Source: Candidatus Zixiibacteriota bacterium (GTDB lineage Bacteria; Zixibacteria; MSB-5A5; GN15; FEB-12). From it: a DNA stretch of 64,000 bases. Made by a program: the position numbers and the translations under genes. This document shows, piece after piece, positions 6,095 to 10,617 of the stretch. Positions within the stretch are counted from its first letter, which is position 1. Every line of letters starts with the position of its first letter. The notes under the pieces are model-generated. The model was not told the DNA's origin and made no database searches. It worked only from the letters and a program-made list of their open reading frames with translations. The stretch spans positions 2,623,890 to 2,687,889 of the forward strand of contig CP070777.1 in NCBI GenBank assembly GCA_020346225.1. Direction: 5' to 3'.

Positions 6095-7729
6095 TCAGGG
6101 ACTTTCGGCGTACAGTAGTGACTTGTTGCGGCCTGTTTCCTTGGCCTTCAGTAAAGCCATATCAGCGGCGAAAATGAGCTTCTTGGAATCGGTGGCGTGC
6201 TTGGGGAACACGGCTCCCCCGATGGATACGGTGCAGCCGATCGGCTTGGCAACCCCCTCGATTACAAACTGTGTGTTCAGTATTTCGGTCTGAAGTCGCC
6301 GCATGAACCTCAGGCACATGGTCTCGTTGGTCTCCGGCATAATCACGCAGAATTCATCTCCCCCGTAGCGGGCGATCACGTCAATGGCGCGAATGGTCTT
6401 GCTCAGGATACCGCCCATCTGCCGCAGGATGGCGTCTCCGGCCAGGTGGCCATACGTATCGTTGGTGTACTTGAGCTCGTCGAGGTCGAAGATAATAAGC
6501 GCCAGGTTGCGATTATACCGCTTGGCACGATTGATTTCCTCGTGCAGGCGCTTGAAGAAATAGCGCTGATTGGCCAGGCCGGTCAGACCATCGGTATACG
6601 ACATCTCCTCCACACGCTCGAAGGATTCGGCGTTTTCAAAAAGGTGCAGAGCGTGGTCCCGGTAGACCTCGAGTTGTTTTTCAATGGCCGCGGTATCGGA
6701 ACCCTGGCTCCAGGCAAGCAACCCCGCGCGCTGAGCCGACAGCGGAAACGAGGCCACGTATCTCAGGCCGCTCTTCAAAAAGTCCCGTTTCCAGCGCTCG
6801 GCAGTCGGTCCGGATACCGGCAGTTCGTTCAAGTCATGATACGGACTGTCCTTCACCAGGCTGATGATCTCGCTCAGGGACCGGTTGTCGGGAATTTCGA
6901 AGGGGATGTCGATCCCGCGCCGAAGCGCCGTCGGCTCGCCATCATCCTCGCGCGAAGCATAAACGTAGGCGACGCCCCCCAGACCGGTGGCATCCCTGAA
7001 GGAATCGACAATCCGGTTGACGACGGTCTGCGTGCGGCGATGGCGGACCAGTTTGAGAAAGCGGGTCTCATGGGGCTGGATTTCTTCCGGACCGGCAGCC
7101 GGCCTTTTGCTCTCTTCCAGCTGTTTCTGGAGACTGTCATACTTGGCCTCGTGCCACTTTATGTGATAGGCCGCCGACAGAGACTGCGCGAGACTGGCCG
7201 CCAGCAGGGCAAAGGCCGGCGAACGCGTTTCGATATTGCTGCGGATGAAGTAAATGCCGTAGAGATTCTGGCGCCAGAAAACCGGGAAGAAGACGTCGAT
7301 CCCGAATCCGAGCAAAGCCCGGTAGAAACGTTCCGACAGAAGCTCTTTGATTAGACCGACCGGTCGGGGCAGGAAATCCGCCCTGAGCACATCGGCCAGC
7401 TTTTCGCTGTAGGTGAGATGGAAATCCCCGCGCTTGAAGCCGCCGATGCCATGAGAATAGTTGAGGTCCAGCGCCCCGCGTTTCTTGCGGACAAAGACAA
7501 TTCGATTGCAGCCGAAGGATTTGATGAGAAGGTCCGAAACCTTCCTGGCCACCTCCACGATGCCGCCGTCAACGCTGTTGGAACGGAGGAATTCCGAGAA
7601 GTCCTCGAGCCGCATGCCGCGGACAGCCGCCATCTGGCGTTTTTCACGCCGGATGCGGACGGCCAGCAGCACCAGAAGGGCGGCGGTCGAAACCGCAAGC
7701 AACAATATAAGAACGTCGTGGAAGGTCAT
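6095..7729 (-). CDS. membrane-anchored diguanylate cyclase (GGDEF) with N-terminal sensory region
   Basis: N-terminal TM helix. C-terminal GGDEF domain with intact RYGGDEF active site and RAID I-site 5 residues upstream (same spacing as PleD). Confidence 0.85.
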   Translation of the reverse strand: MTFHDVLILLLAVSTAALLVLLAVRIRREKRQMAAVRGMRLEDFSEFLRSNSVDGGIVEVARKVSDLLIKSFGCNRIVFVRKKRGALDLNYSHGIGGFKRGDFHLTYSEKLADVLRADFLPRPVGLIKELLSERFYRALLGFGIDVFFPVFWRQNLYGIYFIRSNIETRSPAFALLAASLAQSLSAAYHIKWHEAKYDSLQKQLEESKRPAAGPEEIQPHETRFLKLVRHRRTQTVVNRIVDSFRDATGLGGVAYVYASREDDGEPTALRRGIDIPFEIPDNRSLSEIISLVKDSPYHDLNELPVSGPTAERWKRDFLKSGLRYVASFPLSAQRAGLLAWSQGSDTAAIEKQLEVYRDHALHLFENAESFERVEEMSYTDGLTGLANQRYFFKRLHEEINRAKRYNRNLALIIFDLDELKYTNDTYGHLAGDAILRQMGGILSKTIRAIDVIARYGGDEFCVIMPETNETMCLRFMRRLQTEILNTQFVIEGVAKPIGCTVSIGGAVFPKHATDSKKLIFAADMALLKAKETGRNKSLLYAESP

Positions 7730-7765: not shown

Positions 7766-7793
7766 AATATAGACCGGGCTGCAGAACTGTCAA
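7766..7793 (-). promoter_or_regulatory. sigma70-type promoter for the GGDEF gene
   Basis: Minus strand reads TTGACA-N16-TATATT, preceded by a T6 run. The -10 ends about 37 nt upstream of the ATG at 7729. Confidence 0.5.
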
Positions 7794-7824: not shown

Positions 7825-8118
7825 TCAGCGTCGCCCGAAGATATATTTGAAGCGGGACCGCCTGGTCAGCAGCCTTTTAACCCTGAGTATTCGGAAGATC
7901 CGCCACCAGCTGGGATTGAGGTTGCCGTGTCGGTAGCGCAGCTCAATGTTAATCTCTTTTATGGTTATGAAGGGATCCTGCGTAACGAGATTGACCACGG
8001 CTGTGTCAAGATCGAGAGCCGTCGCGACCGGCTGCGACGGGTTGTCCTCGGTCGTCGACCTGTCGGTGCCGGGTTGGGCGTCAACGACCGTTACCCTCGT
8101 CAGCCCTCCGACTTTTTT
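7825..8118 (-). other. 95-codon open -1 frame continuing from the STAS gene (possible frameshift- or homopolymer-dependent C-terminal extension)
   Basis: Frame is open from the A10 run to the TGA at 7825-7827. No ATG/GTG/TTG until 57 codons from its end. 70 of 95 codons end in G/C by hand count. It fills the apparent 370-nt gap between the STAS and GGDEF genes. Confidence 0.35.
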
Positions 8119-8486
8119 TTTTGATCGTCCCCGGAACCGCCGAAAGCGTTCCGGGCTTCGTCGACCGACGCGTAAGCGCTCAGGACGTTGTCAAACTCAA
8201 GAAGCTCGTAAATCTCAAAAACGTTGTCGATCATGCTGGCCAGCTTGATGTCGCCGTCCCGGGCCCTGACGTCCTTGATGTGGGAGATGAAGATTCCCCA
8301 GCCGGCCGAAGAAATGTAATCGACTCCGGCCAGGTCGACGACGATCTTGTACCGGTCCCGCTTGAGGAGCGAATCCAGGACATCCTCCAACTGGGTAGCC
8401 GTAAGGGTGTCAATGACACCGTCGACCCGGATCTCCGATATCTCGGTTCGCCCTCCTTCGAGTAAAGATATGGAGATGTTATCCAT
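8100..8486 (-). CDS. STAS-domain anti-sigma-factor antagonist (SpoIIAA/RsbV/HsbA-like)
   Basis: 128-aa ORF with STAS pattern (LDSLL..., DLAGVDYISSAGWGIF containing the conserved phosphorylatable Ser context). SD AGGAG 4 nt before the ATG. Confidence 0.85.
   Translation of the reverse strand: MDNISISLLEGGRTEISEIRVDGVIDTLTATQLEDVLDSLLKRDRYKIVVDLAGVDYISSAGWGIFISHIKDVRARDGDIKLASMIDNVFEIYELLEFDNVLSAYASVDEARNAFGGSGDDQKKKSEG
8113..8122 (-). repeat. A10 homopolymer (T10 on plus strand) encoding KKK, contains A_AAA_AAG heptamer
   Basis: Read directly: CAA AAA AAA AAG TCG GAG GGC TGA on the minus strand. Confidence 0.95.
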
Positions 8487-8592: not shown

Positions 8593-10617
8593 TTAATGTT
8601 CCTTCTCCCTCAGCTTCTTCACCTGGATATCGCTCTCGGAAGAAACCGGTTCCTTGACGCAGCGCCGGCACCGGGCCACCACGAAGGTAACATCGTCGGC
8701 GGCCTTGGCAAACCCCGTGAAATCGTCGAGCTGGTTGACCAGAGCTTCCGACAGGTTACTCACCGGCTCGGCGGCGTGCTCGTTCAGATAAGACTCGAAA
8801 AAGGCGGTGAGGCGTTCCATTCCGAACTGACTGTTGTCGCGCCCCCTGGCCTCGGTTATGCCGTCGGTGAAGAGCAGAAACATGTCCTCATGATTCAGCT
8901 TGACGACCAGTTCCTCGAGAGACTCTTCGAAGCTTCGCCCCTCGGCCAGCGGCACGCCCAGGGGAAGACCTTTCGGGTTTACCTTGTCGACCGCCTTTTT
9001 GGACGCGTCATAGAACAGCATCGGGGTATGTCCGGCCGACACCAGGCTTATCCGGCTGGTCTCGGCATCGTAGATAACCAGAAAGATGGTTATGAACATA
9101 CCGGTCGGTATATTCTGGGACAGGTAACCGTCGACTCTGGTGAGGAGCTTCTTGGCCGACGTCTCCTCGGCCGCCTGGATCTGGAGGACGGTGCGCAGAA
9201 TCGACATTACCAGCGAGGCCGGGACACCTTTGCCGGAGACATCGGCCACCGCCAAACAGTACCGCTCTTCGCTGATTTTGAAGATGTCGTAGAGGTCGCC
9301 GCCGATGACCGAGGCCGCGCGATAAAGGGCGTCGATCTCGAGATGCGGGACCTCCGGCAGTTTTCGGGGCAGCAGGGTCTTTTGAATTTCCGAAGCTACT
9401 TCGATTTCCTTGGCCAGTTTCTCCCGCTCCACCACGTTTCTCTGGTCCTGACTCAAGCGCGTCATCATCTGGTTGAAGGCCTTGGATATCTCGAAAAACT
9501 CCTCGGCGCCGGTCAGGGGGAGCTCTGTTTCCATCTCACCGGACGTAAACCGCCGGACGCGCCGGGTTATGTTGAGAATGGGACTGACGAAGTAATTCGA
9601 CAGCAAATAAATGCCGAGAATGCCGAAAACAACGAGAACGACCGTCAGCAGGAAGATACTGCGCCGTGATTCGGTGAGCCGGAAGTAAATCCCGGCCGTC
9701 GAATAGGTGGTGTGCACCTTGCCCAGCAGCCTCTCCCCCGCGCGGATCGGTGTCACCAGATAACTGAATTTCTCAAACTCCGTGGTGACCGGTTGGGGCA
9801 CACCGATTGTGTCGGCGCTGACCTGCTCCGGGACGCGGTACGGCCGACGGATGTTGCGGATGTCATCGGAATGGGCCCTGATGATATTGGCCGAGTCGGT
9901 CAGCACAATCAGCTTCAACTCGGGGTTGGCCCGCATATAGCTCACAATCAGCTCGTCAAACTCGACATCGGAGCGTCGGTTGATAAAGTAACCCGCCGCC
10001 TGATCGGCGATGGTCTTCGAGAGGGCCTGAACGGTTTCATGTTTGTGAGTGTACATCAGCTTTGAAGCGCGGTAATCGAAATAGTAAATCGACGCGCCGA
10101 TAATGACGCACATAATGATAAAGGTCCAGACGGAAAACTTGACCCGCAAAGTGAACAGCCGTCTGAGGAAGGTGTGGCCGATGGGTGACGGCGCGCTGAT
10201 GTGCTTGATCATGCGCAGCTCGTTGAAGCTGGCGGTGGAAATATACTCCACCGAATCCATGATTTTCTGGATCATATAAAAGCCCAGGCCCCCCTTGCGA
10301 CCCGACTCAACGAGCTGCTCGAGATCGAGGGCCCCGGTGCCGCTGGGCTGGAAAGAGCGACCCGAATCTATCAAAGAAAAGACGATCAGCTTCTTGTAGA
10401 TGACGATGCGCAGACGGATGATGCCTTTTTCGTAGAGGTAGGCGTGTCTGATGATGTTGGTGGCACCTTCCTCAATGGCCAGCAGCACGGAAGCGGTGTC
10501 TTTGCGCGACATGGAAGCGGCGATGCAGCTTTCTCGCGCCGTCCGCTGGATGCTGTCGAGGTACTTTTCCTCGGCCAGAAACTCCGCGTTGATTTCCTTG
10601 ACCGGTCTACGGAACAT
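8593..10617 (-). CDS. fusion protein: N-terminal RsbW/SpoIIAB-like Ser kinase (HATPase_c) + 2-TM sensor + HAMP + PP2C/SpoIIE phosphatase
   Basis: N-box EEGATNIIRHAY and G-box GGLGFYMIQKIMD in the first ~140 aa. Two hydrophobic helices flank a ~140-aa segment. HAMP-like linker. SpoIIE motifs EIQKTLLP, GGDLYD, LFTDGITE. Confidence 0.85.
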   Translation of the reverse strand: MFRRPVKEINAEFLAEEKYLDSIQRTARESCIAASMSRKDTASVLLAIEEGATNIIRHAYLYEKGIIRLRIVIYKKLIVFSLIDSGRSFQPSGTGALDLEQLVESGRKGGLGFYMIQKIMDSVEYISTASFNELRMIKHISAPSPIGHTFLRRLFTLRVKFSVWTFIIMCVIIGASIYYFDYRASKLMYTHKHETVQALSKTIADQAAGYFINRRSDVEFDELIVSYMRANPELKLIVLTDSANIIRAHSDDIRNIRRPYRVPEQVSADTIGVPQPVTTEFEKFSYLVTPIRAGERLLGKVHTTYSTAGIYFRLTESRRSIFLLTVVLVVFGILGIYLLSNYFVSPILNITRRVRRFTSGEMETELPLTGAEEFFEISKAFNQMMTRLSQDQRNVVEREKLAKEIEVASEIQKTLLPRKLPEVPHLEIDALYRAASVIGGDLYDIFKISEERYCLAVADVSGKGVPASLVMSILRTVLQIQAAEETSAKKLLTRVDGYLSQNIPTGMFITIFLVIYDAETSRISLVSAGHTPMLFYDASKKAVDKVNPKGLPLGVPLAEGRSFEESLEELVVKLNHEDMFLLFTDGITEARGRDNSQFGMERLTAFFESYLNEHAAEPVSNLSEALVNQLDDFTGFAKAADDVTFVVARCRRCVKEPVSSESDIQVKKLREKEH

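Follow-up and report, generated by a model that had tools for sequence, protein, structure and literature searches.

An A run at the junction of a STAS gene and its out-of-frame extension as a candidate site of programmed frame change in Zixibacteria

In a 64,000-nucleotide stretch of the genome of a Candidatus Zixiibacteriota bacterium (contig CP070777.1; hereafter the window), a gene for a STAS-domain protein of the SpoIIAA/RsbV type carries a run of ten A's close to its stop codon, and behind it the -1 frame stays open far into the gap that precedes the next gene. The question raised by this locus is whether that frame encodes protein and, if it does, how it is reached from the STAS frame. 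The comparisons described below indicate that the frame is coding and that the A run is, with high probability, a genuine and conserved recoding site. That the run directs a programmed frame change with slippage of RNA polymerase as the leading mechanism is a less secure conclusion, which appears probable from the pattern among relatives. The features on which the argument turns are the following.

8100..8486, minus strand: STAS open reading frame (ORF), SpoIIAA/RsbV-type anti-sigma-factor antagonist, 128 amino acids (aa), Pfam STAS E 3.8e-15; stop at 8100-8102
8113-8122, minus strand: A10 run, proposed slippage/frameshift site, with A_AAA_AAG in the phase of the zero frame
7825..8112, minus strand: -1 frame extension, 95 codons and a TGA at 7825-7827; entry would be by a -1 shift or by one extra A in the mRNA
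8080..8103, minus strand: linker motif LTRVTVVD, directly after KKK in the alignment; clade consensus (L/V)T(R/K)(L/V)TVVD

The original prediction, made from the letters of the window, had read the 3' end of the STAS gene as GAC GAT CAA AAA AAA AAG TCG GAG GGC TGA with the heptamer A_AAA_AAG in phase, and the window sequence holds exactly this; the zero-frame product ends in ...DDQKKKSEG. Translation bore out the 95 open codons of the -1 frame up to the TGA at 7825-7827. Read from 8112, the extension is VGGLTRVTVVD...FGRR (it begins VGGLTRVTVVDAQPG... and ends ...SRFKYIFGRR), and the predicted fusion has 220 aa, with a junction at which ...DDQKKK is followed by VGGLTR.... The first ATG, GTG or TTG of the frame is as late as had been said (the GTG of a 57-aa ORF, 7998..7825), and there is indeed a gap of 370 nucleotides (nt) between the STAS stop and the start of the next gene at 7729. 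The third-position GC content given for the -1 frame is correct as well (70/95 codons, 73.7%), next to 74.2% for the STAS gene and 76.4% and 73.7% for neighboring genes. Neither strand of the window has another A/T run of at least 8 besides the A10 run at 8113-8122. The sequence bears out every factual point of the original prediction. An exact-sequence look-up of the window STAS protein returned no record.

Whether the -1 frame is truly coding, as had been proposed, was addressed by homologue searches (tblastn and HMMER) and by codon-substitution analysis, and both were positive. Using the 95-aa extension as a tblastn query, a homologue was found directly after the STAS gene in 27/27 orthologous Zixibacteria genome loci (E 1e-7 to 1e-24), and 65 further metagenome loci have one after STAS; metagenome-assembled genomes of Zixibacteria are the closest relatives (STAS identity up to 77-78%). 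A word-indexed protein search with the 95-aa extension gave no matches. An exhaustive HMMER search with the extension gave 63 matches among 1.84 billion representative proteins, and these are either orphan ORF calls of 56-115 aa or the C-terminal part of STAS proteins of 227-254 aa. Some orthologues are in-frame fusions of about 220-230 aa, as the original prediction foresaw. A metagenome scan with the STAS-domain alignment added 80 loci, and the pooled and de-duplicated set, in which contig L055 was merged with the identical L021, comprises 87 loci, 61 of which bear a run of at least nine A's. Between L009 and L010, both with the -1 arrangement, the ratio of nonsynonymous to synonymous substitution (dN/dS) of the extension is 0.023. 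For other pairs, in which synonymous sites are close to saturated, the ratio is 0.17-0.25 (overall range 0.02-0.25), and the proportion of synonymous differences (pS) is about 0.55-0.83 between most locus pairs. Neither stops nor indels occur in the extension of any of the 61 run-bearing loci. On this comparative evidence, the -1 frame is a real protein-coding sequence under purifying selection.

These results bear directly on two suggestions of the original prediction, namely that the homopolymer was misread in sequencing or assembly, the true gene being an in-frame fusion of about 220 aa, or that the extension is the dead remnant of a recent decay. The in-frame fusions of 221-254 aa in many relatives would suit the former, undercalling of A11 as A10 in long reads would mimic the picture, and the contig names of L002, L017, L019 and L024 suggest long-read assemblies. 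However, 42/61 independent species-level loci are out of frame, most of them with MEGAHIT/SPAdes-style contig names or from JGI metagenomes (assembler and technology being inferred from the names), and independent assemblies of near-identical populations agree. Error or decay would also leave the dN/dS values far below 1 and the intact extensions, the conservation of the run and the enrichment of off-frame stops described below without explanation. Conservation and purifying selection over dozens of independent assemblies exclude a decayed gene and a one-off sequencing error, and an account of this kind is left with next to no probability.

A coding extension might still be a gene of its own, translated by reinitiation, by way of a non-canonical start codon located at the STAS stop, or with the internal GTG at 7998 as its start. 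Public gene calls do list it in this way, as separate 'hypothetical proteins' of 56-115 aa (P0001, P0002, P0010 and others), and a TTG or GTG overlaps the STAS stop in L004, L026 and L027. Against this, the codon overlapping the STAS stop is CTG, GTA or ATA in most loci, and no conserved start codon for the extension was found among the orthologous loci. In the -1 loci, the first ATG, GTG or TTG of the extension frame is scattered from -1 to +233 nt relative to the STAS stop (the latter in L001), often inside or beyond the C-terminal helical domain. In L009, L010, L020, L021 and L026, the zero-frame stop comes only after the conserved linker motif, which falls within the overlap of the two frames; 45/87 loci are continuous STAS-extension fusions; and no Shine-Dalgarno (SD)-like sequence precedes the GTG of the window. 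A separate gene is accordingly considered a marginal possibility. The scattered starts and the motif that spans or precedes the zero-frame stop uphold the earlier claim that the extension lacks a start of its own and can be entered only at the A run, by way of the STAS frame, and the separate 56-115 aa entries are artefacts of the frame change. Many of these separate calls begin within the (L/V)TxxTVVD motif.

How the run and the frame of the extension vary among the 87 loci is summarized as follows.

Loci with a run of at least 9 A's (n = 61): A9 in 11, A10 in 49, A11 in 1; frame of the extension: -1 (39 loci), in frame (19), +1 (3)
Loci with 8 A's or fewer (n = 26): no run of at least 9; extension in frame in 26/26

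Over the 87 loci, an out-of-frame extension is associated with the run (Fisher p = 2.5e-10). In a neighbor-joining tree, the run-bearing loci form a single clade, inside which the frame state has changed at least 12 times while the run stayed at A9-A11 throughout, at the homologous junction position in 61/61 loci. The presence of both the run and a homologous extension in every locus of the clade means that chance is no explanation for the observation. Locus GC content spans 31-61% without loss of the run, and of the Lys codons elsewhere in the same genes only 54% are AAA. By these measures, the run appears to have been conserved by selection while the synonymous sites around it turned over. 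A10 is often shared by sister lineages that differ in frame (L005/L031, L024/L082 and L052/L057), which indicates that run length is held while the flanks drift. Three +1 lineages, L007, L020 and L021, have an intact, conserved extension. The distant in-frame relatives (L064-L106, 214-264 aa) have neither the KKK/A run nor the (L/V)TxxTVVD motif, and their linkers are longer and variable; the linker motif and the run thus seem to have appeared together in one clade.

Past the run, the frames other than that of the extension soon meet a stop, the median distance being 4 codons in one and 10 in the other, as compared with a background median of about 20 in the genes of the window. For comparison, amino acids were held fixed and synonymous codons were redrawn from the usage of the family in 2000 runs. 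The resulting figures, which amount to no clean probability because the loci are related, yet come from loci between most of which synonymous sites are saturated, are given here.

Extension frame +1: stop within 12 codons in 60/61 loci; resampled mean 42.3, maximum 53
Extension frame +2: stop within 12 codons in 58/61 loci; resampled mean 32.3, maximum 44

The stops derive from the codon pairs CTG ACN or GTA ACN, and from GTT GAY. In the window motif, CTG ACG holds the zero-frame TGA (8100-8102) and GTT GAC holds the TGA of the third frame (8081-8083). In the in-frame loci, a stop lies about 10 codons into the -1 frame. The resampling shows, as far as sequence comparison can, that quick stops in the off-frames are under selection, and their retention despite saturated synonymous sites suggests that ribosomes regularly read all three frames.

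This last point also weighs on the possibility of DNA-level phase variation, in which slipped-strand mispairing would switch cells heritably between a STAS-only and a STAS-extension state and the assembly would report the majority allele. Poly-A tracts are known sites of such variation (PMC3711429), the homopolymer lies in coding sequence, all three frame states exist among relatives, and L108 has A9 in a cluster whose six in-frame members have an A10-encoded protein. Yet in close pairs (89-100% nt identity, several of them from different samples), run length and frame are identical in 10/10. Unlike in simple length switching, the frame changes between sister lineages come about through the flanks while the run remains at 10. 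Lineages that would count as 'OFF' show strong purifying selection on the extension, and a cytoplasmic regulator of free-living sediment and soil bacteria would be an atypical contingency locus. Selected stops in both off-frames, moreover, imply that all frames are read frequently in every lineage. Phase variation is weakened by these findings and is judged improbable. One further scaffold of the European Nucleotide Archive (ENA; L109:1600-1891), from the species cluster of the full-length in-frame orthologue P0031, switches into unrelated AT-rich sequence directly after its A10 run, so that a 136-aa 'STAS' protein results; the homopolymer probably seeded a chimeric assembly here.

The preferred reading is therefore set at the level of expression. 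As encoded in the DNA frame, the gene would give a STAS-only protein of 128 aa, and in a fraction of expression events a shift at the run would give a protein of 220 aa composed of the STAS domain, a linker and a basic four-helix domain. In the favored version, the slip would be made by RNA polymerase at the A/T homopolymer, a case of programmed transcriptional realignment. An mRNA longer by one A would have the extension in frame, and one with two additional A's or with one fewer would lead into the third frame, with a stop after 10 codons. A ribosomal -1 shift on A_AAA_AAG would make the same long protein and may contribute. In run-bearing members whose extension is in frame, the same slippage would yield truncated forms. 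For the window, the predicted products are listed below; the tails predicted for the short forms are ...KKKSEG and ...KKSRRADEGNGR.

A10 mRNA: 128 aa, ending in ...DDQKKKSEG
A11 mRNA, or ribosomal -1 shift: 220 aa, junction ...DDQKKKVGGLTRVTVVD..., junction peptide ...DDQKKKVGGLTR
A12 or A9 mRNA: short product, tail ...SRRADEGNGR, TGA within GTT GAC (8081-8083)

Runs of 9 A/T are known to support efficient slippage of bacterial RNA polymerase in vivo, mostly by the addition of A's (PMC5009743), and in E. coli reporters slippage rose from 10% at A7 to 40% at A9 and 63% at A11 (PMC3711429). The junction of the STAS gene and the extension has an A/T homopolymer of the roughly 8-9 or more that transcriptional realignment calls for. 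The distribution among relatives is that expected of slippage: no run in the clade is shorter than 9, the -1 arrangement, which takes one added A, is in the majority, the +1 arrangement, which takes two added A's or the loss of one, is rare, and in-frame members have kept the run. The predominance of -1 agrees with the bias toward added A's (PMC5009743). Where the members of a family differ in the direction of shift that they require, the family has been assigned to transcriptional realignment (PMC3711429). By that standard, the +1 lineages and the in-frame lineages that keep the run argue for slippage of RNA polymerase over a ribosomal -1 shift.

The main competitor is programmed -1 ribosomal frameshifting of the dnaX/IS3 type on a uniform A10 mRNA, which would make the long form by the -1 shift and, in the in-frame loci, a truncated form. 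The window has A_AAA_AAG in phase, a heptamer that is among the shiftiest in E. coli (PMC5009743); exactly -1 is required in 39/42 out-of-frame loci; and the stop about 10 codons into the -1 frame of the in-frame loci resembles the way in which the dnaX gamma product ends. The run is, however, never shorter than 9 in the clade although 7 bases would do, and A_AAA_AAG itself is in phase in only 19/39 of the -1 loci. The dnaX-type specifics of the original prediction were accordingly not upheld: the conserved unit is a run of at least 9 A's rather than the heptamer. Of the stimulators that had been pointed out, the downstream GGGC...GCCC hairpin is present in the window, but neither it nor the GGGGA element is conserved in orthologues. 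SD-like 4-mers upstream occur in 11/61 loci, as compared with 1 and 11 in control windows. No conserved RNA structure was detected at the run, the mean fold z relative to shuffles being -0.05 upstream and -0.19 downstream, and a scan against Rfam gave noise only, with no frameshift element. Conserved SD-like or stem-loop stimulators of the kind used in dnaX/IS3-type frameshifting are thus not found in the family, nor does a single shift direction hold throughout it, since in three lineages whose extension is intact and selected the shift required is +1 or -2. Ribosomal frameshifting as the whole explanation is for these reasons regarded as rather unlikely, and slippage of RNA polymerase is retained as the leading mechanism. 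The window also contains a perfect 7-bp stem, CCGGAAC-N10-GTTCCGG (8131-8154, minus strand), 8 nt upstream of the A run; stem and run together recall the layout of a terminator or of stem-loop-stimulated slippage, and the stem is not conserved in orthologues (mean z about 0).

Several points weigh against slippage of RNA polymerase as the mechanism. An in-phase A_AAA_AAR (A_AAA_AAA or A_AAA_AAG) lies within every run, in 61/61 loci, and a ribosomal -1 shift could therefore serve the 39 -1 loci and truncate the product in the 19 in-frame ones. A +1 shift is required in only 3/61 loci, so that the argument from both directions stands on few lineages. The loci are phylogenetically related, and their counts overstate the number of independent events; some of the genomes were assembled from long reads, a source of homopolymer errors. 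Lastly, the A9 of L108 occurs within a 90%-identity cluster that has six in-frame members of 227 aa. L108 (510-840) is a 961-bp Logan contig from SRR24224778, with an intact extension in the +1 frame, and represents either a true tract-length polymorphism or a low-coverage error. It is an exception which indicates that some DNA-level length variation or assembly error exists.

What a frame change at this position would do to the protein may be gathered from structure predictions, which divide the extension into two parts.

8029..8112, minus strand: predicted disordered interdomain linker, extension residues 1-28 (AlphaFold2, AF2; predicted local distance difference test, pLDDT, 54-60)
7828..8028, minus strand: predicted basic four-helix C-terminal domain, extension residues 29-95 (AF2); no Pfam threshold reached

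With 52 aligned sequences, AF2 predicts helices at extension residues 29-45, 51-62, 69-78 and 84-93 (pLDDT about 85-96), and the alignment shows a conserved C-terminal core, DPFxTIxEI...(G/S)WWxVFxIL(R/K)RxxLLx(R/K)RSRF(R/K)(Y/F). The AF2 model of P0031 has a confident STAS domain, disorder at 121-159 (pLDDT <50) and the same four-helix domain, and its predicted template modeling score (pTM) of 0.54 suggests two independent domains. In these models, the run is positioned at the start of the disordered linker, between two confidently folded domains. By Foldseek, the STAS model of P0031 matches SpoIIAA and RsbV structures with target-normalized template modeling (TM) scores of 0.87-0.92. S59 and S60 are invariant in YISSAGWG, directly before helix 61-76 (helix 2), and a phosphorylatable role is predicted for them. 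The four-helix domain matched no known family with significance: the Pfam hit to HTH_Tnp_Tc3_2 (E 0.017) is under threshold, the best Foldseek match, a Pax/Tc3-type helix-turn-helix (HTH), is non-significant (E 0.42), and a PDB profile search gave nothing below E 0.8. In 120 fused homologues, the precomputed Pfam annotation is STAS only, and the proteins are named 'STAS domain-containing protein' or 'anti-sigma B factor antagonist'. The HTH-like character suggested by these matches is to be taken as a lead only, and nucleic-acid binding by the domain, prompted by its basic composition and the weak HTH resemblance, is a guess.

The neighboring genes place the STAS protein in a likely signaling context.

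8593..10617, minus strand: kinase/phosphatase gene, 674 aa; Pfam HATPase_c_2 (RsbW-type kinase), sCache, HAMP and SpoIIE/PP2C
6095..7729, minus strand: GGDEF diguanylate cyclase gene (Pfam), downstream neighbor, syntenic in orthologous genome loci
7766..7793, minus strand: sigma-70-like promoter TTGACA-N16-TATATT preceding the GGDEF gene; marks the end of the STAS transcription/translation unit

In nearly all genome loci that extend far enough, the gene for the 674-aa protein lies upstream, and the order kinase/phosphatase, STAS, GGDEF is retained in orthologous genome loci. As is expected of partner switching, a cognate RsbW/SpoIIAB-type kinase and a PP2C phosphatase thus lie nearby. The 674-aa protein is presumed to be the kinase/phosphatase partner of the STAS protein, and as it joins the two activities, the STAS kinase and phosphatase are apparently one sensor polypeptide. 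Both isoforms may be substrates of this adjacent protein, and the long form would couple the phosphorylation state of the STAS domain to the target of the basic helical domain, possibly a nucleic acid. The near-consensus promoter reported earlier is indeed found at 7793-7766, 31 nt past the TGA of the extension, with 11/12 matches. TTGAC also follows the extension stop in L005, L011, L017, L018 and L022, so that the position of the promoter looks conserved. A tRNA scan of the window found tRNA-Val only.

The proposed arrangement has precedents in several systems. In dnaX of Thermus thermophilus (tau/gamma) and in the Chlorobi dnaX genes with A9-A10, as here, 9-10 A's at a domain boundary are associated with a long and a short product, and slipped mRNAs of T. 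thermophilus dnaX contain one additional A or more, the longer insertions being progressively rarer (PMC5009743). Orthologues subject to dnaX realignment likewise differ in having one ORF or two in the DNA frame (PMC3711429). Here, in contrast, the protein is a STAS regulator rather than a replicase subunit, the short form is the DNA default in most lineages, all three frame arrangements coexist in one clade, and the case is known from sequence alone. The E. coli dnaX and IS3 sites share with the window an identical in-phase heptamer and a long product made by -1; they differ in that here SD-like and stem-loop elements are unconserved, the heptamer is not the conserved unit, Rfam gives no match and some orthologues are +1. 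A conserved poly-A tract also joins overlapping ORFs in bacterial and archaeal 'magnesium chelatase' genes (A_AAA_AAR / A7-A11) and in mxiE and spa13 of Shigella, where slippage in transcription gives products extended at the C-terminus, MxiE being an extended regulator made by slippage (PMC5009743). Those are other proteins in other phyla, whereas in the Zixibacteria family in-frame relatives keep the run and both off-frames have selected early stops. Paramyxoviruses, which swap P and V as the unedited product, may be likened to the retuning of the default frame proposed below.

With regard to architecture, the closest likeness is to CapS, a repressor with a STAS and a winged helix-turn-helix domain (STAS-wHTH) that is phosphorylated by the GHKL kinase CapK (PMC13373217). 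In CapS and the long isoform alike, a SpoIIAA-like STAS domain that has a conserved Ser forms the N-terminal part and a small helical domain the C-terminal part, and an anti-sigma-type kinase domain is encoded alongside (PMC13373217). However, CapS is encoded in frame and has a recognizable winged helix, whereas the extension has no significant C-terminal match and a disordered linker of about 40 residues; the neighbors here are a PP2C fusion and a GGDEF gene instead of an immune operon, and DNA binding is a guess in the present case. CapS nevertheless indicates that a STAS and helical architecture can act as a phosphorylation-controlled DNA binder.

No prior description of recoding in STAS or anti-sigma antagonist genes, or in Zixibacteria, was found in the surveys PMC5009743 and PMC3711429 or in the literature searched. 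The kind of mechanism, poly-A recoding that gives two isoforms, is known; the gene family, the phylum, the three coexisting arrangements and the selected off-frame stops appear to be new. Outside mobile elements, dnaX and a few other genes, few programmed frame changes of cellular genes are, to our knowledge, conserved over many species. Here, the site lies in a signaling protein, a SpoIIAA/RsbV-type STAS antagonist, of an uncultivated phylum. Slippage at the RNA level, the ratio of the two isoforms and the function are what we infer from this. A speculative extension, offered tentatively, is that clade-wide slippage might act as a ratio-setter between a STAS-only decoy and a STAS-tethered effector with an undescribed nucleic-acid-binding domain, the default frame (-1, 0 or +1) being retuned by evolution and the off-frame stops being part of the device.

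For annotation pipelines, the loci are best treated as one recoded gene rather than as a short STAS gene followed by an orphan ORF or a pseudogene. If the proposed reading is true, the extension would represent a new family of C-terminal domains, now missed or split into spurious ORFs of 56-115 aa, and the clade, with its -1, 0 and +1 arrangements of a single conserved A run, would provide natural variants in which the use and tuning of slippage efficiency could be studied. It would also mean that a layer set by the ratio of isoforms is added to partner-switching signaling in these bacteria.

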